From the NCBI GenBank assembly GCA_009602735.1, contig WELA01000646.1, positions 1 through 48,639 on the forward strand: a stretch of 48,639 nucleotides of DNA, written 5' to 3'. A model generated the notes under the pieces. The model saw nothing but the letters and a program-made list of their open reading frames with translations, made no database searches and was not told the origin of the DNA. The translations under genes were made by a program, and so were the position numbers. How positions within the stretch are numbered: the stretch's first letter is position 1; every line of letters begins with the position of its first letter. This document shows positions 887 through 39,017 of the stretch, one piece after another. This DNA comes from Mesotaenium endlicherianum (Eukaryota).

Positions 887-1414
887 CTGCAGCAACAGCA
901 CATTGACACATGCACGTGTATGTCACAAACTCGCAAATAAGCACGCTTCTCACAAGAATATTGGCCGCCATTGGAGCCCGTCCCGCAACGTTCTCACCCA
1001 CCCCACGTTGTGGCACGCGCATTCACCCACCCCACTCCAGCGGTGCAGCGACGTGCAGCAATCATTAACACCACCTGTCAAGCGCAGGAGCACACACAAA
1101 AGAGATATAGAGAGGTAAATCTAAATAGTCAAACCACTCACGCCTGTACCTTTGTGTTTCACTCACACATTGCCCCTTGCATGCGTACGTATCAATGCCG
1201 TATGGTTGTTGATCATAGATACATACAGACATGCAGGGCAGGAACTTGGGATTGTGACTCACAAATGGCAGGCTTATGACCCTCACAGGCGCCTAACAAC
1301 GGCTCTCAACGCCTTTCGTGACACACGTAGGTTGTGCCTGCAATGCATTGCCACTAGTCACAAAAGACCACCATAAACATATATTCAACAACGGAGGGCA
1401 CAAAATGAGATGGA

Positions 1415-1695
1415 TGTCGTGCCTAACGTGGCACGTGCGTGGCTTCTCAGCACGTGTGCCTTCGACTTGGTTGACGTGTCGGTGCGTCGCTGCACGTGGG
1501 GATCGACCTGATTGATCGTCCCTCGCACGTGTGTTGGTGACAGACTGGTTGGGGTTTGACCCATTCTTGGTCTTCCTGCACTTGCATCATGCGGTGAGGC
1601 ATCCCACACTCAGTGCTTCCCATGTTCAACCCGTTCGTCATTCAACACTTAGCAAAAAATTTCAAGAAGATAGCTTATCTTCAGTTTCCCTTACA
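1415..1695 (-). repeat. Family A terminal repeat segment X, outer copy
   Basis: Direct repeat of 2927-3218 (over 90% by eye, one ~12-nt indel). On the minus strand it starts TGTAAGGG and ends GGCACGACA. Similarity stops sharply at 1415. Confidence 0.9.
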
Positions 1696-2924
1696 AGGAC
1701 AGGAGCGTCTTACTTCCACACAGGCTTTCGCCCGAGTTGAGGGTTTACAGAATGAATAACTTTATAGTTTGTAGAAATCACGTCTAAGCAGCTTAACAGG
1801 CAATGCCTAGTTCAAAGAAAATCGCCCTTTAAGGCTTTTGCTTAACTTCCACAAGTCACAGCTTACAAAACTCTGAATTGCACATCTATGCTGGCCTGGT
1901 TTGAGTTCTTCGCTCAACACCGCGCCTTAACAGCTCTTCACGGCTTGGCTGAGCTCACTCAATGCTTCACTGAGGGCTCTACTTGTTAATACTACTCTTG
2001 CTTATCAGCAATTCGACAATTGAGACTTCTGAGAACTTGGAAACTAACACAGCACTCACCATTTTAAGTGACCCTCGCACGCTTGCGGCGTTTGACCCAA
2101 ATCTGTGCTAATCTCCTAACAGATTCTATCTTGCAGCTCTCTACTTTCTACCAGCGAGATCCTGTCTTGGGAACTCCTGAGGTCTAACCTTTCTATGATA
2201 CCCTTAGGAAGAAATCTTCCAGCGTCGGTAGAAGCGTGGCGCCCCCGCTCTTCTATGCCCTTGGGAACTCCTCTTCTTTGCGCTCCTTCTGCTTCTTCAG
2301 CTTCCTTTGACAACAATGCGAGCAAGAATGAGGCAGCTTCAGGCAAGACTCGTGCCTTTCACAGGCACCACACACTGTCCTCTCTCGAGAATGCCAGTGC
2401 TTAGTTACAGCGTTTAGCATGCATGCCGTCCTTACCCAACAGTTCTCACACAGCTTAGAAGTTGTCATTCAGCATGCATGCATGCATTGGGATTGTTGCG
2501 CGTGACCGCTTAGCCTTTCAGCTGACAATCACGCCTATGCGGCTGGCTGGCACCGTTTAGGGTGAACGCTCAATCCGTGACTAGTCATCTGAGGGTCTGG
2601 CCGAGGCGGCACACAACACCCTTTGCAACATCCCTGCTGTACTTGGCTTGGGTAGCCGATTGATCAGTACCTTTCTTGGTACTCGCTGGGCTGGCTCATT
2701 GCTGGTTCCATGCCCCTAGCCTTTCGGCTGACTACTTTGTCGTAATCCCTATCCAGTCCTGGATGTGGGTTTGATGTGTCGTGACCACTTTGACAGTGGT
2801 AACGACTTGAACATGACCGCTGACTCGGTCCTTTGGTCGGTGAGTCAATGTTGACTTCCCGTACCTGGGCGGCCATGACTTGCGCTGCGCGTGCGGCACC
2901 GTCAAGTGGATAGCAGTCGCGACA
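1696..2924 (-). repeat. Family A terminal repeat segment Y
   Basis: Begins TGTCGCGAC on the minus strand. 2664-2924 is homologous to 45838-46100, the 5' end of family A copy 2. Confidence 0.75.
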
Positions 2925-2926
2925 GC

Positions 2927-3218
2927 TGTCGTGCCTAACAGCGTCAAAAACCTGGCACGTGCGTGGCTTCTCAGCACGTGTGCCCTCGACTTGGTTGACG
3001 TGTCAGTGCATCGCTGCACGTGGGGATCGACCGGGTTGATCGTCCCTTGCACGTGTGTCGATGACAGACTGGTTAGGGTTCGACCCATTCCTGGTCTTCC
3101 TGCACTTGCATCATGCGGTGAGGCATCCCATACTCGGTGCTTCCCATGTTCAACCAGTTCCTCATTCAACACTTAGCAGAAATTTCGAGAAGATAGCTTA
3201 TCTTCAGTTTCCCTTACA
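2927..3218 (-). repeat. Family A terminal repeat segment X, inner copy (PPT-adjacent, U3-like)
   Basis: Starts TGTAAGGG immediately after the polypurine tract. Contains four CACGTG boxes. Confidence 0.9.
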
Positions 3219-3230
3219 CCCCTCCCTTTC
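3219..3230 (-). promoter_or_regulatory. Polypurine tract of family A
   Basis: GAAAGGGAGGGG directly abuts TGTAAGG, about 35 nt after the end of pol. Confidence 0.85.
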
Positions 3231-3264
3231 AGCTGAGGCGTCCCTGCCTTTCTGCTGAAAGCTT

Positions 3265-3672
3265 TTATTTTTTGTCCCTGTGGCTGGGGGTTTCGGGAAG
3301 GCAGTCACGACATTCCCACCATCCTGCCATAATCTCTTCTTCACCAATGCAGAAGGTGTGCCAACGGGCACCACACTAATCGCAAGTTACCATTGCTTCT
3401 TGAGCATCCAGCACTTTGCAGCTGGCACAAGGCGTGGCTGGCACCAATTCCTCGGGCATTGTCTTGATCGTAGGATCGATATTTGGCAAATGGCACAACA
3501 AACAGTTCTGCACGTCATCTCTCATGGTCTTACCATCAAAACCTTCCAATTCCAACACACCATTGTTGAACGCATGTTTCACGCGTAAGATCACTTCACC
3601 TGAACTGGTGTCAATGGTGGTCTTAGTCTGGCGCTTGCGGTAGACAAAGTCTCCTTCCTGGATCTGCGTCAT
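3265..3672 (-). pseudogene. Integrase C-terminal extension with PHD finger (one in-frame TAG)
   Basis: Reading through the stop at 3376-3378 gives CASCKVLDAQEAMVTCD*CGARWHTFCIGEEEIMAGWWECRDC, a C4-H-C3 PHD signature with WxCxxC. Confidence 0.85.
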
Positions 3673-3693
3673 TTGCAGGCGGTAGCTCCCATC

Positions 3694-5253
3694 TCACGTC
3701 TTGGCGTAACGCTGCGTGTCTCTTTTCTGTGCAATTTTCAGATTGTCCAGGGCAGCAGGCATTATGTGCTCAAATAACACCTTACGGCGCAACATGACCT
3801 TTAGCAGTTCATCAGGGTTGTCCAGGTCTTTCACCTGCTCAATCTCCTGCTTGATGCTGCTGGGCACAATTGGACTTCTTCCAAACAAAATTTGATAAGG
3901 CGAGTAATTTGCCAAAGCAGCTTGCTTGCTAAATCTATAACCCATAAGCAGCCATGGCAAGGCCAGATCCCAATCACGCTTATCATGCTTAAGGCAAAAT
4001 TTGCGCAAAGCAGACTTAATGGTTTGCACCATCCGTTCTGCCAGACCATTTGCTTGTGAGTGGTCTCTAGACGTAGTGCGATGGTCAATGAAGCATTTGT
4101 CCAGGAGTTTTTGAAAAGATCCTTGGAACTCAGACCCTTGGTCTGTCAGCACTTCTGCTGGGGCTCCATGACGTACAATCACACCATTGAGGAGCGCTTC
4201 CGCGGTCCCCAAGCTTTCCTTAGCATTTAGAGGCACCACCTCTATCCACTTAGAGAAATGCTCAATCACGACCATAATGTACTTGTTACCTCGCTTGGAC
4301 AGCGGTAGCTCACCTGCGAGATCGCAGCTCCACCGATATCCTAGGCCCGTAATTGGCAGAGGTTGTAGGTGCGGGTGTTGCTGCGTAAAACCAGCCTTGA
4401 CGCGATCGCAGCTTCTACAGGCCTTGATCACATCCTCACAGTGCTGCTTCATGCCCCTCCACCAGTAAGACAGCTCCAGAAGACTGTATGTCTTCTTAAC
4501 ACCATAGTGTCCAGTATTCTCATGCATTTCCTGCACCAGAGCTTGTCTTTTGTTGGGTTCTGGCACTAACTTATCCTGACCAGTTTCTTCAATCTTGAAG
4601 AGGTTATTGCATTTCCAGCAAAACTTTTTAGCCCGATGGCCTACCTGGTCCTTTTTTGTTGTCGACAATCCTTCTATATGGGTCCCCGTCTTCAACCAAT
4701 GCATAGTGGCTTGATCTTTCCAGATCTCTGGACTGAACAAGGGTAGGGGCTCAGCTTCTCCTGATGCTACCATTCTAGCCATTTCGGCCAAGCAGGCGGC
4801 CAATTCTGTGGGGCTGCTCGGGTCTTCGTCTTCTCGAGCCCCTGTTCTGTCGTCTGCAGATGGGTCCGGGTTCCTGCTGAGTCCATTAGCGTCGTTGTTG
4901 AGTATACCTGCTCGGTGTATCACCGTCATCTGGTACTCCTGGAGCTTGAGAGCCCAACGAGCGAGTTTACCAGTGAGGTCTCCATTCTTCATCAACCAGA
5001 GTAACGGCGAATGATCTGTGATCAGCGTGAAGGGCCTCCCCCATAGATATTCTCTAAAATGTGCAACAGCCCAGACCACTGCCAGTAGCTCTCCTTCGTA
5101 GGACGAGTAGTTGCTCTCTGCTTGGTTGTTAAAGCACAAGACATAGGCAATGACGTACTCCTCTCTAGGACTTTCGGCCTGAGTGAGTACTGTGCCAATT
5201 CCCACACGACTCCAGTCGGTGTGTAGATTGAACGGCTTGGAGTAGTCAGGTGT
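3694..5253 (-). pseudogene. pol: Family A RNase H and DDE integrase (frameshifted)
   Basis: RNase H motifs LHTDWS, NYSSYEGELLAVVWAV, ITDHSPL, LARWALKLQEY. Integrase HHCC (HENTGH...CRSC) and catalytic CDLAG, TDQGSEF, LAERMV. Confidence 0.95.
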
Positions 5254-6261
5254 TCACAAGACTGGGGCTGTTACCAGCCGCTCCTTGAGCTCATTCATGG
5301 CCTTCTCCTGGGCTTCTGTCCACACAAAAGGTACGTCATTTTTGAGGAGTTCTGTTAAGGGTTTAGCAATTTTGCTATAATCCTTCACAAACTTACAATA
5401 GTATCCGCTTAGCCCTAACAGAGCTTTCAGCTTAGACACATTTGTTGGTGCAGGTATCTTGTAAATGGTTTTAGTCTTTACAGCCTGAGGGGACATAGCA
5501 TTATTCCCAATCTCATGTCCTAGGTAAGGCACGTGTGCCTCAAAGAATCTGCACTTTCCAGGGTGCAGCCTCATCTGGAATTTCTCCAGGCGCTGGAACA
5601 CTTGCTCCAAGTGCTCGAGGTGCTCCTCTATGGACTTGCTGAACACCACTACGTCATCTATGTATGGTTTTGCAAAATCCAGCCCCTCCAGCACTTTATC
5701 CATAGTCCTCTGAAAGATGGCTGGGGCATTTTTCAGCCCAAACGGCATTACCGTCCATTGCCAAAGTTCCCTTTGGGCCCATAAAGCGGTCTTACCTTGA
5801 TCTTCTGTTTTCACAGGGTTCTGGTTGAACCCTTGGCGTAGGTCGATGATGCTGAACACCTTCCCGGTGGTAGCAATCGCAAAGATCCGCTCTAGTGTAG
5901 GCATCACATAGCTGTCTGGCTCCGTGTGAAGATTCAGTCGTCTGTAGTCTTCACACATACAAGTGGCTGTATAATTGCCATCCTTGTCCTTCTTGGCAAC
6001 TACTACCATGGGAGCTCCATGTATTGAGGTTGATTTCTCAATCATGCCGAGCTTATGCAGCTCCTAGCAAGTTTTCTCCACATAGTCCCATTCGGTCTGA
6101 CTGAGCTTATGCGGCCCAAGTCTGACTGGGTTATCAGTAGTTAGTGTGATCTTACACATACTGGCAGTGGATCTACCAATCTCCTCCTTAGTAAAAGCAA
6201 ACACCTTGCAAAGCTTCTTCATCAGCCTCCCTACTTTTGCTCTCTGTTGGGCTGAGACCAT
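5254..6261 (-). pseudogene. pol: Family A reverse transcriptase
   Basis: DYRRLN, IIDLRQGFNQ, VMPFGLKNAPAIFQR, YIDDVVVFS, YLGH. In-frame stop near 6064. Confidence 0.95.
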
Positions 6262-8479
6262 GTTTCCAATGGTAAAAACCTCAGCTGCTGGCTGCTTTTC
6301 CCCAACACAGGCATCCAGTAGTTGCTACTTCTTGGGTCTAGGTGGAGGCTTTTTGCCCTCATCCTGGCCTTCAGGCTTTTCTGCCTGATTGTTAGACGGT
6401 GGAGTGGCAGGCTTTGCAGCTTGGTCCTCCGCTGTCTCAAGCTTGGTGGCCTGCTTCTCAGGCCTTTTACCTTTTCCAATAGAACGTCACCTCTCTTGTG
6501 GCGTGGAGTAGGTCAGACGCCTCCGGATGGGCTGCTTGAAGAATCTTTCTTCATCGGCTGCAGTCCAGCTGGTCCCTGTTCCTCCTTCTTCACGTGGTGG
6601 GGGTGGGTTTGGCCACCCTGCTGGATCTGCTCAAAGGTCGATTGTGCAACCCCACTCGCGCTCAATGGTAGCTATGCGCGCAACGGTTGTGCCAAACTCC
6701 TCCCTGGCTGGTGGCGTAACCGTCCATGCTTGTGTCACAGTCTGCGATCTTTGAGCCGCAGCTAGTTGTGCGTATATAGCATTCTCTGCTGTCAAATGGC
6801 TTATGGTGCTTCTCAGCTCTACCAATTCCCTTTCAGACACTGCAGGTGTCCTAGGAGCTGACCATTCTTTCTCCCACATTTCTGTAGATGAGGGGCGCAC
6901 CATGGAAATGTGAATTCCCAATGCCATGGCTTTGCGAATTAAGCCATCCTCTCCCTCTCTCTGCAAAACTTCCAAGATAGGTCGCGGAGGAGAAACCGTG
7001 GTTTTTTTCAAAACTTCTTCTCTCTAAGCTGTTCCCCTGTACTTAAGATAACGCATCAGCATCCGCCTGAAAGGTGCATTCCATTCCCAGGCCACCTTTC
7101 TTGGTCTGCTTGCGCAACCGTGAGGATTTCCTTGTGTTGGTTCCACCTTAGCAGTGCAGGCAGCCACTTCCTGCGGTTGTTGTAGCTAATGTGGGGTATC
7201 TTCTCGTGCTGGAAAACTGGCGGTTGGAGTGCTGGATGTGGGCGACCTTAGATCGTTGTAAAGATCGGCCGGGCTGGGTCCTTCCATCATCAAGTGGTCG
7301 TTCACTCAATCATCCGTTCTGAGCTCTTGTAACTCCAACAGGTCCAGCTCTGGGGTAGGAAAACGTAGAATTTCTTCCCGAATCTCCTCTTCATTGGTGA
7401 CTGACGGGCAGGTCAAACCCTAGAAGGTCTGGCATCTCTGCCTCATCTTCAACTGATTTCCCCGCTCTCGTTGGTGGCGGTTCTCCTTCATTATCTGTGT
7501 TGAGCTTTGCCAAGTTGACGATGGCTGATTGCAGAGCGCTTGCCGCCTTAGCCACTTCCCTTTCCTTGTGTTGTCAAGCGTCTCCACCCAGCAGCTGCTC
7601 CATGATTTGCCTTGAAATGGATTCAGCTGTTTGACTGGCTGAACCCTGCTGTTGCCCCTTAGCTTGCGGCTCTGGGCTCATCAAGGCAGGTGTTGTAGAC
7701 AATTTCTTGTCCAACTCTTCCTGGCGTTCTTCAAATATCACTTCGAGACATATGGTCTTTGCAGACCCTCCAGAATCTCCTGAGTTCTGGCTACTCTCTT
7801 CAGCCCTTTCACCAAGATTGCACTGGCGTTCTTGCATTACTACTTGGTTTAAGCAGTATCCAGTATTTTCGGCCATAGGCCAGGAGTCTTCGTCTCAGAT
7901 TCTTCTGACATGTATTGTAACGACGCTTGCTCTGGTGAAGACGATAGACACTTTTGGTTAGATTCCCAGCTACTTGAGCATTCCTGCCAATAGTCTCCGC
8001 GCCCAGCTGCTCTTGGGGTGAGGTGGGTATCATACCTTGACCTGGTCTTTTTTGGAGTCTCTTCACGTCTTGATGTCGTGGCTACAAGATGTGAGCTCCC
8101 AAAAATCTAGCTGTGAATGGCGTTTCTCGCAGATGATGGGGTGCCATGCGTATCGTCTTCTACTCTTGGTAGCGGCACTGCCTGCTCACGCGCCTGATCC
8201 CTCATGGGTGTATCCTCTCTTTTTAGAGGTGCTTGTAATTCCTTGGTCCCGTTATCAATCCGGGCCAACAGATCCTGACATCTCATCAGTTTTGCCACTC
8301 TTTCTCCCCTGAATGCTCTGTCTACAGCGGCTTCCACTGCGTCTCTTTGCACTCAGTATTCTTCTTGTTGCTGATGTGCCGTTTTGATAGCCCTCTGATC
8401 AGATGTTGGCACCACATTGAACCCAATTGTCACTGGTTTTGGTCTTGGCATAGGCTTGTCAGTGAAGGTCAACTGTTGC

Positions 8480-8922
8480 CATGTCATGATTGTTTCCACC
8501 AACCAAGTCATAGAGTGCTGCCCGATCATGTTGCCGAAAATCTTTGCGGCTTCATAAGACCCTACAGCACCGGCTATATGCTGAGCTATGGTGTCAGGTA
8601 TTCCAAGGCATTTGCCCTTTTCCACCGCGGTAGGCTCTCTCCACACGGCGTCTCTTTCATATATGTCTTTGACCATTCTTGGTCCACCTCCTATGAAGGC
8701 TCGGCATCCTGGATATGCTGTGAAGGTTGGTAGTACCACTATTGGCTGGCCTGGTTCGTTGATGACACACTGTGGATAGGAATCCCTCCTGGTCACTGGT
8801 CTGGTATGCACCGCCAATTCCATTTCCACTGTCAATGCCGTTGGTGATTGCCGTGTAATGTCCTCCATTTCTCTCAGAACCTCCATAGACATGCCGTTGG
8901 TCCAAAATATCCTGGCCCTATG
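8480..8922 (-). pseudogene. C5-cytosine DNA methyltransferase, C-terminal half (motifs VIII-X), inside family A pol
   Basis: HRARIFWTN (motif VIII; DNMT3 has HRARYFWGN), REPTAVEKGKCLGIP (motif IX-like), AAKIFGNMI (motif X-like). Cut at 8922 by an LTR. Confidence 0.75.
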
Positions 8923-9636
8923 TGAAATGAATCGTCTTACCAAATAGGCGACTAATAATTAATAAAGATCATTATATCAGCAAGTAATCTTTATGGATTT
9001 TTTGTTAACTGATTAAACGGCAAAGGACAACACACTAGCTGTGAACAATACTTGTAAATCAAATGAGAGTAAACTAGCATCAATAATGCATTCAGTAAAC
9101 TCATACATAAGCAAGGTTAGAAGACAGTGCGTATCAATGGCTTCTCGCCTTGGATTCAGTTCTCTCTCAGTCAGCTGTACAAGAGAGTTGGCCTCGTTTT
9201 TGAATGCCGAACTCGAGAGCATTGCCTAGCATATGTACATGGAATGAGTTTACTGTTCAACGATCAGTGCGATGGCACCGCCTACCCGGGAGTTAACCAC
9301 GTTGGTAGGACCTTGGTTAACCAAATCCACCCCCATCTCCCATCATCCCAAATCGCCATCCGTCATAGGGATGTCATCTGGCCATTCATTTAGCATATCA
9401 CACCTAGACGCATATCGAGGCAGTTCGCTGCTACCGAGTACGGACGTCAGCTGGCTGTCAAAGAATGTGTTAGCAAGCTGACTTAAGCTGCAGCCTGCTG
9501 CATCCGGCTGAGTCATTAAACTGATACTAAATATAAAGTCCAGCAGCTGACTATCAACTAAAGTTCAGCAGGCTGAACTTAATTTACTATTACATTAAAA
9601 TGAATATTATATCTACTAATATACTGATTCATTACA
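8923..9636 (-). repeat. Family B 3' LTR
   Basis: TGAAATG...ATTACA on the plus strand. PPT (GGAGGGAT, minus) adjacent at 9637-9644. Confidence 0.95.
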
Positions 9637-9748
9637 ATCCCTCCAACTGTACTTGTTGTCGCCTCGACAACATTAAACTGCAAAAGTCTTTGGCCAGGAA
9701 ACTGAACCTGACCCGCCTCTTCCCGTGACTGCCCCTTCAGCGTTTTGC

Positions 9749-11421
9749 CTAGGGGGTTGTTCCTGGGGCTTCAGGATCAGGAGACCGAGATCTGGACCTA
9801 GATCTGGACAGCCCTCTAGGTCTGTCAGCTGGCCTTCTAAAAAACCCCGTTTGCTCTAAAGTTGGACCTCGAGGAGAACGAAGGATGGTAGCCTGCTCTT
9901 CACCCACTTGGGTGTTGATCCCCACATAGACAGGCATTCCAGTAGGATGCTGAAATACATTGGCTAGAGGTACATGCCCCTGAGCGGAGGGGGAGGCCGG
10001 CATACCTCTGGCCCACCCGCGTGTCCCTCTTCTGGCACCCCTGTCCTCTGGGGATTTCTGCCTGTGTCTGCTCCCCAGTACAGTTAGATCAGAATCTTCC
10101 CCTGCTTGGGCAGGTGGGGGGAGCGAGTGCGGGGTCCAGTTGCCTCCAAGACGGGGATCACGTTCCAAATGCCTGATCGTGGTTCTTTAGGAAGTGTTCC
10201 TGCCTGACCTTGGGTCTCCTGAGTACCAGCTGCTGATGCTTCTCTTCTGCCTTGTTCTTCTTCCTCATCCTCCTCATCCTCCTCCTCGGAGAGAGTAGGA
10301 GTCTCGTCCACTAAGTCGTCCTGCTCCCTAGTAGACATGGAGTAGTCTACCGACCTCCCTTTCTTAGGGCGCGCGGGGGGTTGCTTGGCCTTCAGCCTGT
10401 TGATATCTATCCGGCCTGCATTCTTTGCCCATTTGACGAAGGCATGCTTTCCCTTTGAGAAATAGTCTCTTCCCCTCCTCCTATGCTCCTTGGTCTCTGC
10501 ATTCATATTGCTCAGGCAACCATTCAGCCTGGGGTCCCAAGGGGCAATGTGAGGTGGTAGGATGAGATAGCCGTCTAGGCCATAGTGGAAGTCATCCGGT
10601 TGGGCTCGGTCACCTTCCTGCTTCTTATTTGTGACGATCATCCACCTCCAGTCTGTTGGCTGCTGGTAATACTGGGGTCCGTGCTCAGCCTTCCTCATTT
10701 TACACGGGAACCAGTGGGGAGAGAACATCTGCTGTCTTGCTTCCCGGGCCAAGTACTCCCAGCTCCTTCTCTCAACTTCATTGTAAGCTGGCAACAGTGT
10801 GAGGTAGAATACCGTGTCCTTAAAGCTATTGGGCCGCATGCTCACCATCCGGATGAGTCTCTAATCTCCCACTATTCCCGGTATGGGGACCGGCTTGTTT
10901 TCTAAATCATCTGCAAGGTACCGGGCCTGCTCTGCTGTATAGCCCACCATCTTGGCATAATCTTCGTAGAGGACCACACCAGTGTGTGTCTCGATGTACC
11001 TATCCAGTGTTGCAGCTCCTTCCCTCTGTAGCAGTGTCGTCTGTTCCAGCTTGTTGATCTCCTGGGCTGCCAGCAATGCTTTCTTCAGGTTATCAAAGTT
11101 TTGGCCACCCACTACAGTACACCTGTAAGTGGCCAAGCTCTTCTGTCTGTCCGCTTCAATCTTTTTCCTTTTCTCCTCCTCGCCGCTGCCGCTTCTTCTT
11201 GTTGTTTCTTCTCTCTCGCCTCCTCAGCTTTTCTGAGGTTTTTCCGCTTCCTGATCCTTCTTCCTCTGTGCCTCTTCTGCCGCCTCTTGTTGTCTGCGGA
11301 CCCTTTCTTGTTCTCCTCTGGTGAGGGACGTCGCCGCCAGCTCCTTTTGGTATTGCTCCATTGTCCTCCTGGCTTCTTCTGCCTTGCGCTTTCTGTCCTC
11401 CTTTTGTGTAGTGGGAGCCAT
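9749..11421 (-). pseudogene. Family B extra ORF downstream of pol (about 550 aa when two frameshifts and one TAG are repaired), function unknown
   Basis: Joins track ORFs 11224-11445, 11112-11471, 10861-11136, 10084-10848 and 9749-10168. Colinear with 22377-23663, with many synonymous differences. Confidence 0.8.
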
Positions 11422-11422
11422 C

Positions 11423-11528
11423 CTGTACATGTAACCAGGGCACAAGTTAGTAGGATATGGACGTTTGTCATAGGGATTGCAGGCAGGAAGTATGTCCGTA
11501 TTAGTATGGTGGATTTGCTCCTCTTTAC
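11423..11528 (-). other. Predicted 106-nt spliceosomal intron just upstream of the extra-ORF ATG
   Basis: AAG|GTAAAG donor, TACTAAC branch point (11446-11452) and TACAG|G-ATG acceptor. Same length and signals at 22270-22375. Confidence 0.65.
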
Positions 11529-11769
11529 CTTACAGGGTGATTGCTAGAAGTTGACGTAGTTGCGGTGCGCTAAACATAAACGTATGAATGTGTTTTAAGG
11601 TGAGTTAAGTGATGTGTTGCTGTGCGAGGCCCTTTTCCCTTCAGCTCAAGGTGCTTTCACGTAACTGTCCCTTTATCGCTCTCGCTCACTAACTGTCATA
11701 TACTTTTCCCCTCCAACTTAAATGAAGACACGACCGCCTGTCACCTTCCCGTGTCAACTGAAATGACAG

Positions 11770-14700
11770 TTATGGAGGGGCTCCAGTCGCCCGAAGGTGG
11801 AACCGTTTCAACGCCCCTTTGGCATTGGTCAAATGGTCCTTAAATTCCCAAGTGTCCCCAGAGGCATCGTAACCCTTCCATCGAATGAGGTATTTCATGA
11901 CATATTTAGACGATCAACGGACCGAGCGCGCGTCTAAAATCTCCTCAACCTCATATTCGTCAGAGTTGCCGTCCCTGACAGCGGGGACCGGTTCCGGTTG
12001 GACTGGGAACCAACCTGTGAACAGTATATCACCTTTGATGTATGGTTCCAGGAAGGAGACATTAAAGACCGGGTGACCCTTGTATTCGGCTGACACGTTT
12101 AGTTTGTAAGCGTTCTGACCGACACGACGCACCACCGAACATGGACCGACCCAGACAAGGCCAAGCTTTTTCTTGACCACACCAGGGAGGTACAGGTGCT
12201 GAGAATGCAGTTTGACTAGATTGCCTTTAGAAAATGTCAGCTCTCGACGGTGTTGATTAGCGTATTTTTGTTGGTTTTGTTGGGCTTTGTGCAGGTTTTG
12301 TTGGACTTCTGACAGGGTGTCAGCAAACTCCTGAGTTAACTGGAGGGAGACGGGATTGTCAATACCTTCAGGGTCAGTTAAAGACTCCCCCAGTACATCT
12401 AAAGGAGACTTAGGGACTCTACTCAGGCTGAGTTCAAAAGGAGTCTTGCCCGTTGACGCGTGCACCGCAATGTTGATCGCAAACTGAATTTGAGGCAACA
12501 GGTCATCCCAATTATCTTGTTTTTGGTTAATATATGCTCTCAGCACCTCCTGCAGAACTCGGTTAGTTCTTTCAGTCTGTCCATCAGTGTGAGGGTGGTT
12601 AGCTGTGCTAAGCAGCTGTTTGACTCCCATTAACCCCATTAAAGCTCTCCAAACTTAGAGGTAAATTTTGAGTCTCTGTCTGAGATGATATCAGAGGGAA
12701 GCCCATGTTGGCATACTACATGGTTGTAGAACTGTCTCGCTGTTTTGAGTGCAGTCACTTTGACAGTTGTGGGGATAAAATTGACCATCTTTGTCAGTTT
12801 ATCCACGACTACCAGTATCGAATCATGCCCATTGGCAGTTTTTGGTAGTGTGACCACCCAGTCCAGGGATATAGTTTCCCAGCGTCCAGCTGGAATGGGG
12901 AGTGGTTGCAAGAGACCTCCCGGTGGTGTGTGCCTAGACTTATTTTTTTGACACTGATCACAGGACTTTACATATTTCAAGACCTCCTGAGGCAACCCCT
13001 CCGAATGATAATGTTTCGCCAGTTTGCCAACTGTTTTGGCCTGCCCCAAATGCCCACCCAGTAAACTGTCATGTGCTTGACTCAATAAAAGGGACCTTAT
13101 TTCCAAGTTATTAGGAATGACCAGCTTCAGCCTGCCTGAAGTGATTTCTGTCACCCAGACCCCTCCCTTATGCTTATACCCGAGTGCAGTAGCACGACAC
13201 ACACCAGTAGTGGGGCTGGGCTCAAATGTTGGGTCAGAAAGGTAGGCTTTCCTAAGTTGTTCAAGAAAGGACTTTTTCACCTCTAGTGAAGTGAGTGCAC
13301 ACAGGACTTTATCTACAGCATGCTGACTAAAGTTGCTTTCTTGCAAGTCAGGTCTTCTAGAGAGTGCATCAGCAAGATTCAACTTCCCTGGTTTGTAGTC
13401 GATCTGGACTTGGAATTGCTCCAGCATCTTGGTCCAGCGGTTCTCCCTCCTCGACAGCTTGGACTTCTTCTCAAAGTGAGTCAGAGCTAGATGATCTGTA
13501 ATCACCTTAAAAGCTTTACCATGTAAGTATGCTCTCCACTGTTTGAGTACATGAATGATAGCTAGCAGCTCTTTATCATGCACTGAGTAATTAATCTCCG
13601 CTGGATTAAATTTCATAGACTCATACAACACAGGATGCCACTCCTGCCGTACCTTACCATCCTTTGTGGTTTTGTCAGCAGGCTGCAACAAAATAGCACC
13701 CATGGCAAAGTCAGAGGCATCAGTAACCACCTGCACCGGTTTGCTGGGGTCATACACGGCTAGCACTGGGGCAGAACAAAGGGCATCTTTAAGGGTCTGG
13801 AAGGCAGCCTGCTGCTCTTCCCCCCACGCATACCCTATGTCGTTCTTAGTAAGGTCAGTCGGTTTACTGGCCTTTGTAGAATAATTCTCAATAAATCTCC
13901 TATAGTAGTTAGCCAACCCGAGGAAGGATCTAACTTCAGAGACAGACTGTGATGCTGGCCAGTCCCTTATGGTCTGGACTCTCTTAGGATCCACACTGAT
14001 GCCGTCTTTACTGACAACATGGCCTAAGAATTCAGTACTTTCTTTAAAGAAATCACACTTGCTCATTTTTGCATATAAGTGATTTTTTCTCAGAGTGTCA
14101 AGGACTGTCTTTAAGTGTCTAGCAGGGTGAGCTTCATCCTTAGAGAAAATTAAAATATCTTCCAGGAAAACTTGCACAAACTTATCCAAGTAAGGCCTGA
14201 AAATGTCATTCATAGCACCCATGAAGGTCGCAGGAGCATTAGTCAGTCCAAATGGCATCACGTTGAACTCATAGTGTCCATAACGTGTGCGGAAGGCAAT
14301 CTTGTGTTCATCCCCCTCAGCAATTCTGATTTGATGATAACCACTCTTGAGATCTATCTTATTGAACACCTTAGCACCAGACAGGGTATCAAGCAAGTCC
14401 TTGATTCTGGGTAAAGCATACTTGTTCTTTATTGTTATTCTGTTCAGGGCTCTGTAATCCACTCACATCCGAATACCACCATCCTTTTTCTTAACAAATA
14501 GGATGGGTGCGCCGTAAGGTGATTTACTGGGAGAAATATAACCACTTTCCTCAAGCTCCGCAATCTGTGTTTTCAACTCCTCGCTCTCCACATAAGAGAA
14601 GTCATAAGTGCGTTGCCAGGGTGGCTGACTCCCAGGTAATAAATCAATCCTATGATCTACTTCTCTCTTATGGGGTAGTCCTGGAGGCATATTAAACACA

Positions 14701-15455
14701 TCCGTGTACTGAGCATCAATTTTCGCAGCAGTAGGGTGCTCCGGAGGGCTTACCTTTTTCTCCACCACTTCTTCGGGTTGAGGAGGTACGTCTCTTATCA
14801 GCAGACAGAACATTCTGTCTTCCTTCTGGTTCCAGCTTTTGACGAACTCCAATGCATTCAGCAACTTGCATCCTTCTGGAAGCCTCTTCTTTTCCTTCAT
14901 TTGCCATCCACACAGGACAAGAGGAAGAGCACTGGTGGGTGCCAAGTCAGTCTGCCCATCACTGGCTCCTCTCACTTTAACTGTACCTCTGCTCCAACAC
15001 ACTTCAGCTTGATGTCTATTAAGCCAGGACCTGCCTAGCACGAGATCATAAAAGCCAGTGTTGAGTACCTCAAATGTAAGCGTTTCAGTTAGAACTGCAA
15101 TGCCAGAACCTAACTGGACCTCAATAGGCTTGGTTATAACTCCTCCGGGGATACTTGAGGCATCTCCAAGGAATATTTTTCTATTCCCTTGGGTGACAGT
15201 AGGCAGCCTTAGCCGCTTAACTAAGTCCTTGTGGATAAAAGTATGTGACGCCCCTCCGTCAACAAATGCCCTCACCTTCCTACCTGCAATCATGCAATGC
15301 AGTAGGATAGGGGGGACTGTCTTTTCCTGACTTTCGCATTGTTCTCCTGACGTAGCAAAGAAATGTTGGACATCAGGTGGAACAAGAGCATCCAGACTGT
15401 GCACTCTCTGGACGTCTATATTGCTGATGGTCTCCTTTATCTGGTTGTCAGGCAT
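11770..15455 (-). pseudogene. pol: Family B pol: protease, RT, RNase H, integrase, chromodomain
   Basis: [34 protein letters not shown] (catalytic D mutated); [13 protein letters not shown]...GH...CDQC, SDRD, DGQTER; chromodomain EYEVEEILD...YLIRWKGYDASGDTWE. Stops at 14463 and 11914, frameshift near 12639. Confidence 0.95.
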
Positions 15456-15930
15456 GCATAGTCTAGCAAATGCAGCAGCGTGAAATTGGCATCTACTTGC
15501 TGCGTAGTGTCCTCAACAGTCCCTCTCGCTCCTGCAGCAGCAATTCCTGCCGCATTCAGCCGGTCACGTATTTGACCTAGGGGTACATTGAATTGTACAG
15601 CAGGAGGTGGGTTCAGGATATTGGCCCTGGATGCCATAAGTTCTTCAACAGTGCGCTTGTCAGCTGGCTGTTCTTCCCTCCTTTCTGTATCTTCAGCGGC
15701 CTTTGCTAATTGTTCAGTTCTAATCTGGCTCTCTCCTCCTCAGCTTGCTGTGCTGCAACTGCGGCAATAACACTGGCCTCATCTGCAGCCTCTCTAGGTG
15801 CAGTATCTGCCACTAGTTCAGAATAGGTACGGGTTCCCGCTACATGGCTTTTCGCCTGGTTTTTGACATTCTCGCTATCCTGGTTCTCCATGTCTCGGGT
15901 GTTGCTAGTTTGAGATCTTGTCCTTACCAT
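15437..15930 (-). pseudogene. gag: Family B gag N-terminus (capsid and zinc-knuckle region deleted)
   Basis: ATG about 20 nt after the PBS (MVRTRSQ). Homologous to 17010-17250, then jumps to the equivalent of about 18350. Confidence 0.75.
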
Positions 15931-15950
15931 ACAAAGAAGACTGTAATAAT

Positions 15951-15963
15951 TGCTCCGATACCA
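15951..15963 (-). promoter_or_regulatory. Primer binding site, tRNA-iMet type
   Basis: TGGTATCGGAGCA, 1 nt after the LTR end. Confidence 0.9.
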
Positions 15964-15964
15964 C

Positions 15965-16746
15965 TGAAATGAATCGTCTTACCAAATAGGCGATTAATAA
16001 TTAATAAAAATCTTTATATCAGGAAGTAATCTTTATGGATTTTTCGTTAACTGATTAAACGGCAAAGGACAACACACTAGCAGTGAACAATACTCGTAAA
16101 TCAAATGCGAGTAAACTAGCATCAATAATGCATTCAGTAAACTCATGCATAAGCAAGGTTAGAAGACAGTGCGTATCAATGGCTTCTCGCCTTGGATTCA
16201 GTTCTCTCTCAGTCAGCTGTACAAGAGAGTTGGCCTCGTTTTTGAATGCCGAACTCGAGAGCATTGCCTAGCATATGTACATGGAATGAGTTTACTGTTC
16301 AACGATCAGTGCGATGGCACCGCCTACCCGGGAGTTAACCACGTTGGTAGGACCTCGGTTAACCAAATCCACCGCCATCTCCCATCATCCCGAATCGCCA
16401 TCCATCATAGGGATGTCATTTGGCCATTCATCTAGCATACCACACTTAGATGCATATCGAGGCAGTTTGCTGCTACCGAGTACAGAAGTCAGCTGGCTGT
16501 TAAAGAATGTGTCAGCAAGCTGACTTAAGCTGACTTCAGCTTGCTGCATCCGGCTGAGTCATTAAACTGATACTAAATATAAACTCCAGCACACTGACTA
16601 TTAACTAAAGTTCAGCAGGCTGAATTATGTAAATTACATTTAAATGAATATTACTTCTACTAATATACTGATTCATTACAGGCTGAACTTAATTTACAAT
16701 TACATTTAAATGAATATTACATCTACTAATATACTGATTCATTACA
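15965..16746 (-). repeat. Family B 5' LTR with a 66-bp terminal tandem duplication (16681-16746)
   Basis: Near-identical to 8923-9636 apart from the extra unit. Confidence 0.95.
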
Positions 16747-17009
16747 ATGACTCAGCTGAGAGCAGCAGGCTGAAGTCAACTTAGGTCAGCTTGCTGATAC
16801 ATTGTTTGACAGCCAGCTGACTTCTGTACTCGGTAGCAGCGATTTGCCTAGATATGCATCTAAGTGTGGTATGCTAGATGAATGGCCAAATGACATCCTT
16901 AGCATGGATGGCGATTCGGGATGATGGGAGATGGCGGTGGATTTGGTTAACGGAGGTCCTACCAACGTGGTTAACTCCCAAGTAGGCAATGCCGTTGCAC
17001 TTGCCGTTG

Positions 17010-18256
17010 CTCGCTGCTGAGGGTGCAGAAAGGAGGGACGGACAGTCCGCGGTCGAGCGCACTGTCGAAGGATTTATGGCAGCGAGAGCCAATGTCCTGA
17101 AGCCACCTCCTGCTGTACAACTCAACGTTCCTCTAGGTCAAATTCGTGACCGGCTGAATGCGGCAAGAATTGCTGCTGTAGGAGCAAAAGGACTGTTGAG
17201 GACACCTCTCAGCAAGTGGATGCCACTGCTGCTGCTGCATTTGCTGGACTTTCACCTCAGAGTGTAGATTTGGGAGCACTATTTGTGCAAATGCAATTGC
17301 AAATGGCGAGCATGTATCAGTCCCAACAGGAGGATAAACGAATCATAATGTCCTTGCTGACAAAGACCAATTGGGTTCTCAAACCACTGGTGGTCGTGGT
17401 AGAGGACCTAGTAAGCCTAAGCCAAAACCTCCTCAAAACTATGATCCTGAGGGAAACAAAAAGTATTACCTGATCAAGTTTCTCGCTGATGTTGAGCAGT
17501 GGCTGGAGAACTACCCAGAACTGCAGGATTACGAGAAGGTCAGGCACACTGGTGCTTTACTAAACGGCAGTGCAGCAGACTGGTGGTTGTATTGGAAAGG
17601 AGGGCGTAAGGCTTAGCAACTCGGTGACCCTACTTGAGTAGAGTTTGTCGAGAAAGCGCATGAGAAGTTTGATGTCATTAATCAGCAGGAGAAAGCTATC
17701 TTTGCAATGATCTCCATGACACTGAAGCAGACCACTTCAGATCCTGAGTTTGCTCAGAAGTTCCAGGAGAACATGATGAAGCAGCCAGACTTGCCAGAGC
17801 GGTATAGGATAGCATACTTCAGGTATGGCTTGAAATCCGAAGTCTCTGGTCATTTTGCTGAAAAGAAATATGAGAAACTGGCTGACTTGATACAGGCCGC
17901 TGATGCGTGGGATCAGCAGCAGTTTAATCACAAGAGCCAGAGTAATGCTTTGGTGTCTAAGATTGTCAAATAGCCCCACGATTCCTACAAAGCAATTGAA
18001 GGAGACTGGGGCTAAGGACCATCAGGGTGATGAGTAAAAGTATGAATATACTGCTATGCAACCTAGAGAGAGAGGTGGTTACTCTCCAGGTGGCTATGGA
18101 AGAGGTGGTGGTAGGACTAAGCCGAGGCCAGCCTCAGCAAAATCTATTTGCTTCCATTGCCAGCAGCTGGGTCACTACAGAGAACAGTGTTCAATCAAGC
18201 ACCTTCCAAAGGTCGAGAGAAAAGACCAGCCATTAAAAGACAGCAACAGTCAGTAA
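17010..18256 (+). pseudogene. gag: Family B gag (capsid region and CCHC zinc knuckle)
   Basis: PKPPQNYD, LLNGSAADWW, FRYGLKSEV, CFHCQQLGHYREQC. Several stops and frameshifts. Confidence 0.9.
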
Positions 18257-21200
18257 TCCAATTTACAGATTGTGAGGATGCTAGAGATAGTGAGTCGTCA
18301 CTAGCTACCTACGTAGCAGGTATTATGGATCCTGCTGAACAAGATTCATTATGCATACCTGACAAACAAATAAGGAGACCATCAGCAATATAGACCCCCA
18401 GAGAGTGCACACTCTGGATGATCTTGTTCTACCTCATGTCCAACATTTCTTCGCTAAGTCAGGAGAACAATGCAAAAGTCAGGAAAAATATGTCCCCCCT
18501 ATTCTACTGCATTGTATGATTGCAGGTAGGAAGGTGAGGGCATTTGTTGACGGAGGGACGTCACATACTTTTATCCAGAAGGACTTAGTCAAGCGGCTAA
18601 GGCTGCCTACAGTCACCCAAAAAAATAGAAAAAATAAAAAATATTCTTTGGAGATGCCCCGAGTATCCCCGGAGGAATTATAAGCAAGCCTATTGAGATC
18701 CAGTTAGGTTTTGGCATTGCAGTTCTAACTGAAACGCTTACGTCTGAGGTACTCAACACTGGCTTTTATGATCTCTTGCTAGGCTAGTTGTGGCTTAACA
18801 GACATCAAGTTGAAGTGTGTTGGAGCAAAGGCACAGTGAAAGTGAGAGGAGCAAGTGATGGGCAGACTAACTTGGCACGCACCAGTGCTCTTCCTCTTGT
18901 CTTGTATCGATGGCAAATGAGGGAAAAGAAGAGGCTTCCAGAAGGATGCAAATTGCTGAATGCAATGGAGTTCATCGAAAGCTCGAACCAGAAGGAAGAC
19001 AAAATGTTTTGTCTGCTGCTAAGGAAGGTACCTGCTCAACTTGAAGAAGTGGCTGCGAAAAAGGTAAGCCCTCTGGAGCACCCTACTACTGCAAGAATTG
19101 TTGCTCATTATATTGATGTTTTTAATATGCCTCCAGGACTACCCCCTAAGAGGGAAGTAGGTCACATGGATGATTTGTTACCTCGGAGTCAGCCACCCTG
19201 GCAACGCACTTATGGCTTGTCTTATATCGAAAGCAAAGAGTTGAAAACACAGATTGCAGAGCTTGAGGAAAATGGTTATACTTCCCCCAGTAAATCACCT
19301 TATGGCGCACCCATCCTATTTGTTAAGAAAAAGGATGGACATTTGCGGATGTGTGTTGATTACAGAGCTCTTAATAGAATTACAATAAAGAACAAGTGTG
19401 CTATACCCAAAATTGAGGACTTGCTTGATACCCTGTCGGGTGCTAAAGTGTTCAAAAAAGTAGATCTTAAGAGTGGTTATCATCAAATGAGAGTTGCTGA
19501 GGGGGATGAACACAAGACTGCCTTCCGCACACGTTTTAAACATTATGAGTTTAATGTGATGCCATTTGGAGTGACTAATGCTCCTGCAACCTTCATGGGT
19601 GCTATGAATGACATTTTCAGACCTTACTTGGATAAGTTTGTGCAAGTCTTCATGGATGATATTTTAATTTTCTCCAAAGATGAAGCTCAACATGCTGAAC
19701 ACTTAAAGACAGTCATGGACACTCTGCAAAGGAATCAGTTATATGCTAAAATGAGCAAGTGTGATTTCATTAGGAAAGTATTGAATTGTTGGGCCACGTT
19801 GTCAGTAAAGAAGGCATCAGTGTGGATTCTAAGGAAGTCCAGACCATAAGGGACTGGCCAGTACCACAGTGGGTCTCAAAAGTTAGATTCTACCTTGCGT
19901 TGGCTAACTACTACAAGAGATTCATCGAAAATAATTCTATAAACGCCAGTAAACTGACTGACCTTACTAAGGACATAGGGTATGTGTGGGGGGAAGAGCA
20001 GCAAGCTGCCTTCCAGACCCTTAAAGATGCCCTTTGTTCTGCCCCAGTGCTAGTCGTGAATGACCCCAGCAAACCGGTGCAGGTGGTTACTGATGCCTCT
20101 GACTTTGCCATGGGTGCTATTTTGTTGCAGCCTGCTGACAAAACCACAAAGAATGGTAAGGTACGGCAGGAGTGGCATCCTGTGTTGTATGAGTTTATGA
20201 AATTTAATCCAGCGGAGATTAATTACTCAGTGCATGATAAAGAGCTGCTAGCTATCATTCATGTACTCAAACAGTGGAGAGCATACTTATATGGTAAAGT
20301 TTTTAAGGTGATTACAGATCATCTAGCTCTGACTCACTTTGAGAAGAAGTCCAAGCTGTCGAGGAGGGAGAACCGCTGGAGCTAGATGTTGGAGCAGCTC
20401 CAAGTCCAGATCGACTACAAACCAGGGGAGTTGAATACTGCTCATGCACTCTCTAAAAGACCTGACTTGCAAGAAGGGAACTTTAATCAGCATGCTATGA
20501 ACAAAGTTCTTTGTGCACTCACTTCACTAAAGGTGAAAAGTCCTTCCTGGAACAACCTAGGAAAGCCTACCTTTCTGACCCAACATTTGAGCCCAGCCTC
20601 ACTGAGGGTGCAATCTTGCAACTGCACTTGGGTATAGGCTAAAGGGAGGGGTTTGGGTAACTGAAACCACTTCAGGCAGGCTGAAGCTGGTCATTCCTAA
20701 TAACTTGGTCATAAGGTCCCTCTTATTGAGTCACGCACACGACAGTGTACTGGGTGGGCATTTGGGGCAAGCCAAAACTGTTGGCAAATTGGCAAAACAA
20801 TATCATTGGAAGAGGTTGCCTCGGCAAGTTTTGAAATATGTGAAATCTTGTGATCAGTGTCAAAAAAATAAGTCAAGGCACACACCACCCGGGGGGCTAT
20901 TACAACCACTACCCATCCCAGCTGGACGCTGGACAACAATATCCATGGACTGGGTGGTAACACTACCAAGAACTGCCAATGAGCATGACTCGATGCTGGT
21001 AGTAGTGGATAAACTGACAAAGATGGTCCTGTTCATCCCCACCACTGTCAAAGTAAACATTTAGAATTGCGAGACAGTTCTACAACCATGTAGTATGCCA
21101 ACATGGGCTACCCTCTAATATTGTCTCAGACGGAGACTCCAAGTTTTAATGGGGTTAATAGCAGTCAAACAGCCGCTTAGCACAGCAAATCACCCTCAGA

Positions 21201-21990
21201 CTGATGGGCAGATTGAAAGAACTAACCGAGTCCTGCAAGAGGTGCTGAGAGCATATATTAACCAAGAACAAGATAATTGGGATGACCTGTTGCCTCAAAT
21301 GCAGTTTGCGGTCAACAGTGCAGTGCACGCATCAACGGGCAAGACTCCTTTTGAACTCAGTCTGGGTAAAGTCCCTAAGTCTCCTTCAAATGTGCTGTGG
21401 GAGTCTTTAACTCACCTTGAGGGGATTGACAATCCGATGTCTCTCCAGTTGATTCAAGAGTTTGCTGACACCCTGTCAAAAATCCAGCACAATCTGCACA
21501 AAGCCCAGGAAAATCAACAAAAATACGCTAATCAACACCGTCGAGAGCTGACATTTTCAAAGGGTGATTTGGTCAAACTGCATTCTCAACACCTGTACCT
21601 GCCTGATGTGGTCAAGAAAAAGCATGGACCGGTCTGGGTCAATTCGTATTCTGTGGTGCGTCGTGTCCGTCAAAATGCTTATAAACTGAATATGTCAGCG
21701 GAATATAAGGGTTACCCACTGGTTAATGTCTCCTTCCTGCAACCATTCATCAAGGGTGACACACTGTTCATTGGTTGGTTCCCTGTTCAACCGGGACCCT
21801 GAGGAACATGAGGTCGAGGAGATTTAGAAGCTCGGTCTGTTTGTCGATCATCTAAATATGTCATGAAATACCTGATCAGCGGGAAGGGTTACGATGCCTC
21901 TGGGGATACTTGGGAATTTAAGGACCATTTGACCAATGCCAAAGGGGCGTTCAAACGGTTCCATCTTCGGGCGGCTGGGGCACCTCCCTA
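18232..21990 (+). pseudogene. pol: Family B copy 2 pol fragments (PR, RT, RH, INT, chromodomain)
   Basis: [30 protein letters not shown] and DGQIER, colinear with 11770-15455. Confidence 0.95.
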
Positions 21991-22376
21991 ATTGTCGTTT
22001 CATTTGACATAGGACGATGACAGGAGGTGTTGTCTCCATTTGAGTTGGAGGGGAAATGTGCTAGTAAATGACAGGTAGTGTGCGAGAGAGGGACAGTTAT
22101 TGACAGCATAGTCACAGATGGGACACCCACGCCTACATTCAGCAAAGTTGGCGGAATGAAGAAGGGACTTGCACATCAACACATTATTTAACTTACCCTG
22201 CACACACATTCATTTGTTTATTTTTCATCGCACTGCAGCTACGTCTACTCCTCGTAACTACCCTGTAAGGTTAACGGGAACAAACCTACTATAACAATAC
22301 AAACTTGCTTCTCTTCCTGCAACTCCGGTGACAAGATCAAGATCCTACTAACTTGTGCCTTGGTGGCATGTGCAGG

Positions 22377-23663
22377 ATGGCTCCCACCACACAAAAGGAA
22401 GACAAAAAGCGCAAGGTAGAAGAAGCCAGGAGGACAATGGAGCAATACCAGAAAGAGCTGGCGGCGACGTCCCTCACCAAAAGAGAACAAGAAAGGGTCC
22501 GCAAACAACAAGAGGCGGCAGAGGAAGCACAAAGGAAGAAGGAGCAAGAGGCCAAAAATCTTAGGAAAGCTGAGGAGGAGAGACAGAAGAAACAACAAGA
22601 AGAAGCGGTGGCAGCAGAGGAGGAGAGAAGGAAGAAGGCTGAAGCTGACAAGCAGAAGAGCCTGGCCACTTACAGGATATACGATGGTGGGTGGCCAAAC
22701 CTTTGATAACCTGAAGGAAGCATTGCTGGCAGCCCAGGATATCAACAAGCTGGAACAGGAAACAATGTTACAGAGAGAAGGAGCTGAGATCCTAGACAGG
22801 TACATTGAGACACACATGGGTGTGGTCCTCTACAAAGATTATGCCAAAATGGTGGGGTATACAGCAGAGCAGGCACGATTTCTGGCAGATGACTCGGAAG
22901 ATAAGCCGGTACCAGTGCCTGGCATAGTGGGGAATCAGAGACTCATCAGGATGGTCAGCATGCAGCCCAATAGCTTTAAGGATGCGATATTCTACCTCTC
23001 ACTACTTCCAGCTTACAATGAAGTTGAGAGGAGGAGCTGGGAGTACTTGGCCAGGGAAGCAGGGCAGCAGATGTTCTTCCCCCACAGATTCTCTTGTAAG
23101 CTGAAAAAGGCCGAGCATGGACCACAGTACTACCAGCAGCCCACAAATTGGAGGTGGATGACCGTCACTAACAGGAAGCAGGAGCGTGACCAAGCCCATC
23201 CAGATGACTTCCATAATAGGCTGGACGGCTACCTCATCCTACCACCTCACATTGCCCCTTGGGACCCCAAGCTAAATGGATGCCTGAGTAATATGAATGC
23301 TGAGACCAAGGAGCACAGGAGGAGGGGGAGAAATTACTTCTTGAAGAAGAAGCATGCCTTTGACAAATGGACGAAGAATGCAGGCCGGATAGATATCAGC
23401 AGGCTGAGGCGTGGCAACCTCCAGCTCGTCCTAAGAAAGAGCGGTTAGTGGATTTTTCTATGCCTACCCGGGAGCAGGATGACTTAGTGGACGAGACCCC
23501 TACCCTTTCAGAGGAGGAAGATGAGGAGGATGAAGAAGAAGAACAAGGCAGAGGAGAAGCATCAGGAGCTGGTACTCAGGAGATCCAAGGGCAGGCAGAA
23601 GCAGGGGCTCTTAGGGCGCGAAGATCAGGTGTATTCACTGTCACTAATGATCCCCACAGCTAG
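22377..23663 (+). pseudogene. Family B extra ORF, copy 2 (shorter, different C-terminus)
   Basis: MAPTTQKEDKKRK... coiled coil, conserved core and acidic EEEDEEDEEEE tract. Two frameshifts. Confidence 0.8.
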
Positions 23664-23766
23664 GCAACAGTGCTGAAACACGGGGGGGTTAGTTCTGTTA
23701 GTTTCCTTACCAGCTAATTTTGCAATTCAATGTTGTCGAGGCGACAACAATTTAAGTTCGAGGGAT

Positions 23767-38980: not shown

Positions 38981-39000
38981 AATATAACATGCAAACTAGT

Positions 39001-39015
39001 CCTGCTCCGATACCA
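39001..39015 (-). promoter_or_regulatory. Primer binding site, tRNA-iMet type
   Basis: TGGTATCGGAGCAGG, 2 nt after the 5' LTR. Confidence 0.9.
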
Positions 39016-39017
39016 GA

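Follow-up and report, generated by a model that had tools for sequence, protein, structure and literature searches.

How an element with the proteins of a Ty3/gypsy retrotransposon comes to end in direct repeats that are split and permuted is the question raised by a locus in Mesotaenium endlicherianum. In the textbook account, long terminal repeat (LTR) elements and retroviruses integrate a linear cDNA by the ends that the primer site and the polypurine tract (PPT) define, and it is a long-standing question whether 2-LTR circles, in which these ends are joined, are real precursors. The window analysed here, a 48,639 nt stretch of contig WELA01000646.1, contains two copies of a family for which an initial annotation proposed that such a circle is opened by integrase at a palindrome inside the repeat.

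Split repeats and a palindrome in the window

The annotated arrangement of copy 1, pol-PPT-X-GC-Y-X on the minus strand at 1415-3230, is borne out by the window sequence. The PPT (GAAAGGGAGGGG, 3230-3219) is directly abutted by the 292 nt X1 (3218-2927), which the spacer GC (2926-2925) separates from the 1229 nt Y (2924-1696). The 5' start of Y is TGTCGCGAC, at which other host copies begin with varied flanks. A second X (X2, 281 nt, 1695-1415) terminates in GCACGACA at the right end of the element; X1 and X2 are identical in 262 of 280 aligned columns, with two gaps besides, and their similarity stops exactly at GCACGACA, where X2 ends. The adjoining TCCA (1411-1414, minus strand) is predicted to be a target site duplication (TSD), its length of 4 bp being taken from relatives and its left partner lying outside the window. 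In the naming applied to relatives, A corresponds to Y and B to X, such that these repeats are B1, A2 and B2, with A1 at the left end of a copy.

The X1/Y joint forms the palindrome CGACAGCTGTCG (CGACA-GC-TGTCG, 2920-2931), consisting of two att-like half sites around a 2 nt spacer and constituting the putative integrase cut site. The window contains 15 palindromes of at least 12 nt, so this length alone is not rare; the placement is beyond chance because it coincides with two independently defined boundaries, the end of X1/X2 likeness at CA and the start of likeness to copy 2 at TG (46100), and because it recurs in related families.

Upstream of the PPT, on the same strand, are found the C-terminal tail of integrase, in which a PHD-finger-like Cys/His pattern is broken (3265-3693), RNase H, an H2C2 zinc finger and an integrase core with D, D-35-E intact (3694-5253), and a reverse transcriptase (RVT_1) with stops on both sides (5254-6063). 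The upstream internal region (6328-8922), in which the ORF tested had no Pfam hit, gives way at 8922 to another family's LTR, the 5' end being absent; copy 1 is a dead, decayed Gypsy copy of a green-plant-lineage family. Copy 2 begins at 46100 with TGTCGCGAC, as had been claimed, and shares Y for only about 263 nt (A1, 45838-46100, minus) before gag, the remainder of Y and the primer site appearing to have been deleted. Its left flank lies in an LTR of another family (window family B) minus the last 4 nt of that LTR, and the TCAT found there (46101-46104, minus) is a predicted TSD with its right partner outside the window. The interior, likewise on the minus strand, comprises gag (zinc knuckle) and a protease-like region (44536-45837), a C5 cytosine methyltransferase (DNMT) domain interrupted by an internal deletion (43402-44484; PF00145, E 2.4e-14), and a stretch holding an unassigned ORF, a leaky-stop context and a fragment of reverse transcriptase (41587-43343), where copy 2 ends prematurely. 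With copy 1 truncated on the 5' side (8922) and copy 2 on the 3' side (41587), the window yields no TSD pair.

The candidate leaky stop is a TAG followed by CAR-YYA, TAG-CAA-CTA in copy 1, where it is in frame with the RT ORF (6319-6327, minus); the same in-frame context occurs in copy 2 (42351-42359, minus) and in the relatives L001 (position 5083) and L082 (position 3489), and matches a leaky-stop context of plant viruses. In both window copies and 2 of the 23 relatives checked, the TAG divides the gag-PR-DNMT side from RT-RH-INT, and the protease is thereby upstream of it, an unusual position. The region between DNMT and RT (6328-8922 and 42357-43343, minus) spans about 3 kb or more in the window family, as against about 1.1 kb in family 1 of the relatives, and its ORFs in the window family had no Pfam hit.

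The remaining window families, B and C, are ordinary Gypsy elements in which the 5' LTR is followed by a TGGTATC primer site. Two family B elements stand back to back at 16746 (within 8923-24532) without matching TSDs, one 5' LTR of this family is reduced to 264 nt, its LTRs have a variable 66 nt tandem duplication at their start, and additional pieces are nested at 46101-48639. Family C (33606-39937, minus) is a chromodomain-bearing Gypsy element with LTRs 97% alike and a tRNA-type primer site, the start of its 5' LTR adjoining another chromodomain-like fragment.

As the window is a nest of rearranged elements, and X begins with TG after the PPT in this family, the layout could be attributed to an ordinary LTR element and a local accident: tandem insertion, deletion, misassembly or a small A-B element inserting beside B ends. 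Other copies in the host argue against this. Contigs from two DNA runs of one sample, possibly the source of the assembly, were compared with 1696-3700, and loose contig ends at 2924, the first base of Y (80/2983 and 69/3015 contigs in the two runs), formed the largest pile among the matches listed, with flank agreement of only 0.40 and 0.38; this pile with varied flanks indicates that the palindrome's TG is where the family starts. No row of loose ends was present at 3218 among the matches listed. Three contigs in each of the two runs connect the terminus of Y with the beginning of X, so the Y/X joint (1689-1700, minus, in copy 1) is no assembly accident, and it is variable, other host copies having 2-3 extra letters (AGT or GT on the plus strand, i.e. 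CCT-ACT or CCT-AC). These letters rule out the annotated reading of the joint as a trimmed CCTTACA, and the B of relatives begins without TG; the other part of that claim, that the joint is a junction of cDNA ends, agrees with its behaviour, and we read it as the fossil of such a junction. Two RNA runs yielded 16 and 61 reads, mostly partial and diverged.

Relatives, their proteins and their termini

Relatives were identified by integrase alignment, comprising 80 of 527 confirmed metagenome loci and 15 loci from prokaryote assemblies, the latter most likely contaminants; in viral contigs, none of 33 pattern matches was confirmed. Duplicate loci (L004, L015, L019, L025, L031, L045, L055, L074 and L077) were removed before counting. 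The relatives used for TSDs, primer binding sites (PBS) and 5' ends are about 50-57% identical to the window family in integrase.

By its proteins this clade belongs to Ty3/gypsy. In an RT-RH tree of 31 rows, window copy 1, three families of relatives, and proteins from Klebsormidium nitens, Closterium and Calypogeia form one clade (100/99) that leaves window families B and C outside; copy 1 has a long branch and its sister is not resolved. The closest named proteins, from Closterium, Klebsormidium and liverworts, have 41-52% identity. The domain order gag-PR-RT-RH-INT, an RT nearest that of Ty3 and a DDE integrase with an H2C2 finger are those of Ty3/gypsy, as are the PPT in the window and the PBS, 4 bp TSDs and TG...CA ends in relatives. 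By terminal structure the clade is not canonical, since two whole direct LTRs bounded by PPT and PBS are not found at the element ends. L001 and L082 encode DNMT, RT, RNase H, integrase and a PHD finger (PF00628), and the best PDB hits for L001 are Ty3 Gag-Pol (E 4e-98) and, for the methyltransferase, DNMT3A/B (E about 2e-7). A Dnmt3-type DNMT is thus present inside a Gypsy element, PF00145 being found in copy 2 and in L001/L082; none of the 61 matching DNMT proteins is named K. nitens. Pfam hits to a tyrosine recombinase were absent from 22 window ORFs and 21 ORFs of L001/L082, and no Chromo hit was found at the integrase end of L001/L082, which has a PHD finger instead.

Self-comparison and mapping revealed three families in which B-NN-A follows the PPT. 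Family 1 includes nine complete A-internal-B-NN-A-B copies, six A-internal-B and one solo A-B; family 2 has one complete long copy (L059) and one short (L041); and family 3 has B-GC-A-B in L081, with L001 and L082 collapsed yet intact, giving totals of 10 long, 7 short and 1 solo. Most of the TSDs and 25/26 of the family-1 joints described below stem from a single family and from short-read metagenome assemblies, in which B-A-B might have been collapsed into B. The joint C-G/A-ACA-NN-TGTC is common to all three families and the window, so that the annotated palindrome is a conserved feature; its spacer is 2 nt in 25/25 cases and GC or its transition product in 23/25. Relatives' B starts with ATAC, CGAG or CACT/CATT, and the PPT-defined end therefore lacks TG there. 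L083 and L084 have the joint CGTGACA-GC-TGTCACG; in these two loci, both from hypersaline sediment assemblies, the palindrome is perfect over 16 nt (L083, 4606-4625) and 20 nt (L084, 2780-2799), and a second B was not seen in either.

Target duplications were tallied for 17 elements of two families with both ends resolved, excluding L027 on account of its unresolved 5' start. A 4 bp TSD around TG...CA is exact in 11 of these and has at most one mismatch in 15, L017 and L022 having none; TSDs of 5 and 6 bp were found in 0/17, and shuffled pairs gave a mean of 0.0. Lengths of 3, 5 and 6 were rejected in the relatives. One further element, represented by the overlapping loci L002 and L048, is an eighth short form (A-internal-B, flanks AGCT and AGCC) and stands outside this tally. 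Ends of TG...CA with a 4 bp TSD indicate DDE integration at the half sites of the palindrome, and the internal att site proposed in the initial annotation is thereby upheld: the TG of the palindrome forms the start of the copies and its CA their end, as seen in the pile of host contigs at 2924 and the TSDs of relatives. Moreover, in relatives a single TSD pair encloses the whole A-internal-B-NN-A-B unit. With layout and palindrome recurring in three other families, a spacer that is conserved and not random, and not one conventional form among the 20 + 29 A copies classified, a local accident in an ordinary element is a very improbable source of the arrangement.

The ends of the cDNA and their junction

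No tRNA primer site was found after A1 in the relatives. The 12 nt after A1 are complementary to a site 31-34 nt behind the TATA box in A in 16/16 family-1 copies, with 9-12 Watson-Crick pairs; in families 2 and 3 (L059, L001 and L082) the letters are wholly different and the complementarity perfect, L001 and L082 differing from one another by a compensated double change. This site was read from relatives; Y in the window carries no A1 end, and no TATA/self-primer pair could be assigned to it. The pattern suggests self-priming of the Tf1 type in relatives. A PBS after the first Y, as the initial annotation expected, is accordingly present in relatives in position but not in type, being of the self-priming kind and not for a tRNA. 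Primer sites complementary to the predicted first RNA bases, and not to a tRNA, are similarly described for Tf1/Sushi and Tcn1 in the accessible text of PMC6317226; these are chromoviruses with ordinary LTRs, whereas in the present clade the repeats are permuted and a PHD finger was found but no chromodomain hit.

By standard reverse transcription, a self-primer after A and a PPT before B would define a cDNA LTR of B-NN-A (X-NN-Y), which favours the annotated X+Y, and the A2/B2 joint connects exactly the PBS edge and the PPT edge. Joint classes were assigned by eye for 26 distinct family-1 loci: 11 have this exact join, one has a substitution and 14 are altered in length, the changes including -1, -2, -4, -7, +1 and a large deletion at a microhomology (L012). 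The joint of L073 retains a 135 nt stretch including the PPT, and all four family-2 joints are altered, one by a 17 nt, partly templated insert. Control joints remain in register (25/25 for PPT/B1 and 16/16 for A1/PBS). Joint classes are interleaved on the tree, with variants on separate branches; 5 of the 14 altered joints are a 2 nt loss in an AT run, which slippage could also yield. The A2/B2 joint hence appears to vary as an end-joined junction does, and to be remade, unlike inherited joints.

On average, repeats are less distant within one element than across elements, both for B (distance 0.103 within and 0.136 between elements, n 23) and for A (0.119 and 0.186, n 9), in a set that contains one and the same locus as L006 and L015 (permutation p 5e-5). 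This closeness is an average signal, a copy's own partner being the nearest for only 6/23 B2 and 5/9 A2. The B2-B2 distance, 0.147, is no closer than that of B2 to B1, and B2 forms no group of its own.

These observations bear on the alternative of copying similar to that of PAT and Ngaro, in which the RNA spans A2 and B2, the joint is inherited via RNA, and a linear cDNA that strand transfers have built with TG...CA ends, or that is trimmed to them, undergoes ordinary DDE integration. Such copying would yield a single polarity without further rules and accommodates the 11/26 joints that are identical, and the repeat layout is that given for PAT and Ngaro in the accessible text of PMC4157794. 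It is nevertheless decidedly unlikely: the sides of the joint match the PBS and PPT edges, as expected of cDNA ends, its variants, including retained PPT sequence, recur on separate branches, there is no separate B2 lineage, and a primer for the far 3' end is not evident.

Polarity, the proposed route and known systems

Complete long copies show one permutation, A-int-B-A-B in 10 and A-B-A-int-B in none (two-sided p 0.002), and the choice of site is therefore fixed. In the relatives none of 20 PBS-linked A copies is preceded by B, and neither ordinary long-LTR nor short-LTR copies, the forms against which the initial annotation had set its reading, were found; 29 B-preceded A copies are all then followed by B, one more ending at a contig edge. 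Distinct family-1 loci that stop after B1 number 21, against 25 with B-A-B. Dead-end forms are not hidden by selection, because A-int-B is common.

This polarity is difficult to reconcile with the free 2-LTR circle of the initial annotation, in which joining of the ends comes first, a circle is set free and either internal palindrome can be opened by integrase. Such a circle would yield exactly the long form, the variation of the joint resembles that of circle junctions, the solo A-B and the A-int-B forms, both with TSD, match the two pieces of a doubly cut circle, and junction cleavage has retroviral precedent in the accessible text of the reports cited below. Its two equal sites, however, predict both permutations in equal number, where all ten long copies are of one kind and B stands in front of no PBS-linked A. 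An extra rule of site choice would be needed, with which the circle merges with the explanation by an internal cut. This part of the annotation is not supported, and the free circle is unlikely.

Instead, integrase probably cuts the palindrome inside the repeat, the true cDNA ends being sealed by host end joining. From the layout, ends, TSDs, conserved palindrome, primer complementarity, joint variation and polarity, observed mostly in relatives, we infer self-priming, internal cleavage and end joining, as well as the order of these steps. The RNA would start inside A, about 32 nt behind the TATA box, and its first 12 nt would self-prime at the site after A1. With the plus strand primed at the PPT, a linear cDNA would result with an LTR of B-NN-A at both ends, which in relatives would lack TG...CA. 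Within the left LTR, integrase would then nick CGACA-NN-TGTC behind the CA on each strand, and this double nick would produce two ends with 2 nt 5' overhangs in one step, akin to 3' processing, and these cut ends would be inserted 4 bp apart in the target. The right cDNA end and the start of the small B piece would be joined by error-prone end joining, either before integration, in a circle held by integrase, or after it, as break repair; the sequence fits both orders. The expected product is A-internal-B-NN-A-B with a 4 bp TSD, a form itself observed in relatives. The short A-internal-B with TSD, common in relatives, could arise from a one-LTR intermediate, from cuts at both sites, or from B-to-B annealing in repair. 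As a guess, engagement of the left LTR by integrase as the first finished duplex would explain the use of a single palindrome.

On balance it seems that across the whole clade, which spans streptophyte algae, liverworts and moss-like hosts, the att sites were shifted away from the cDNA ends into a palindrome in U3, such that each insertion needs internal cleavage and host end joining and fossilises the LTR-LTR junction. If so, the normal route of an LTR element would be the side route long debated for retroviral circles, and the layout of DIRS and Ngaro would have been reached with a DDE enzyme. A natural family with att sites inside the repeat, and with the end junction kept at each insertion, would make the question of circle precursors readable from genomes. 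Abutted ends are also acted on by DDE enzymes in the circle or tandem junctions of the bacterial IS3, IS30 and IS21, with a spacer of 2-3 nt; these are DNA transposons, in which the transposase makes the junction and reverse transcription plays no part. In retroviruses, the accessible text of PMC1180852 and PMC1905944 describes foamy virus and HIV-1 integrases cutting a palindromic LTR-LTR junction internally, again a DDE integrase acting on two back-to-back att sites in one duplex, as the cut proposed here would be. In those reports it is the joined cDNA ends that form the palindrome, and the route is minor or disputed, whereas in the present clade the palindrome would be inherited within U3, away from the junction, and seemingly provide the only route.

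Split direct repeats of the form A...B-A-B are shared with PAT, TOC1, Kangaroo, Ngaro and VIPER, which according to the accessible text of PMC4157794 carry a tyrosine recombinase and lack both integrase and TSD; the present clade has a DDE integrase, 4 bp TSDs, a PPT and TG...CA ends. Split direct repeats alone hence do not mark a tyrosine-recombinase element, and LTR finders, which seek two terminal repeats, would miss or mislabel the clade. The initial annotation knew of no such architecture in Ty3/gypsy elements, but KnitGypsy-Dnmt3 of K. nitens has Gypsy domains and repeats described as 'the same as that of a DIRS retrotransposon' (de Mendoza et al. 2018, PMC5890265, Fig. 4c legend). Gypsy domains, a Dnmt3-type methyltransferase and DIRS-like repeats are common to both, and three K. 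nitens RT proteins, not labelled KnitGypsy, are those sharing the clade of window copy 1; the present clade differs in that its DNMT lies in the ORF before the TAG, not visibly in one ORF with RT (L001 and L082). The accessible part of PMC5890265 is silent on termini, TSD, primer site, palindrome and mechanism, and no other paper was found under the name KnitGypsy. The literature searched, with subscription journals and Repbase outside its coverage, did not describe internal att sites, self-priming or end joining in this clade, and the accessible part of bioRxiv 10.64898/2026.05.21.726589 does not treat the mechanism. As far as searched, the layout has thus been noted once, in 2018, and the mechanism is apparently undescribed.

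Members of the clade also occur in contigs of bacterial and archaeal metagenome-assembled genomes (L081-L087, GTDB genome contigs assigned to Synechococcales, Mollicutes, Halorubrum and Halanaerobiaceae), most likely as eukaryotic contamination. The contig L082 looks circular, its ends overlapping by 127 nt, and a 91%-identical DNMT protein carries a bacterial label in NCBI (P0121).
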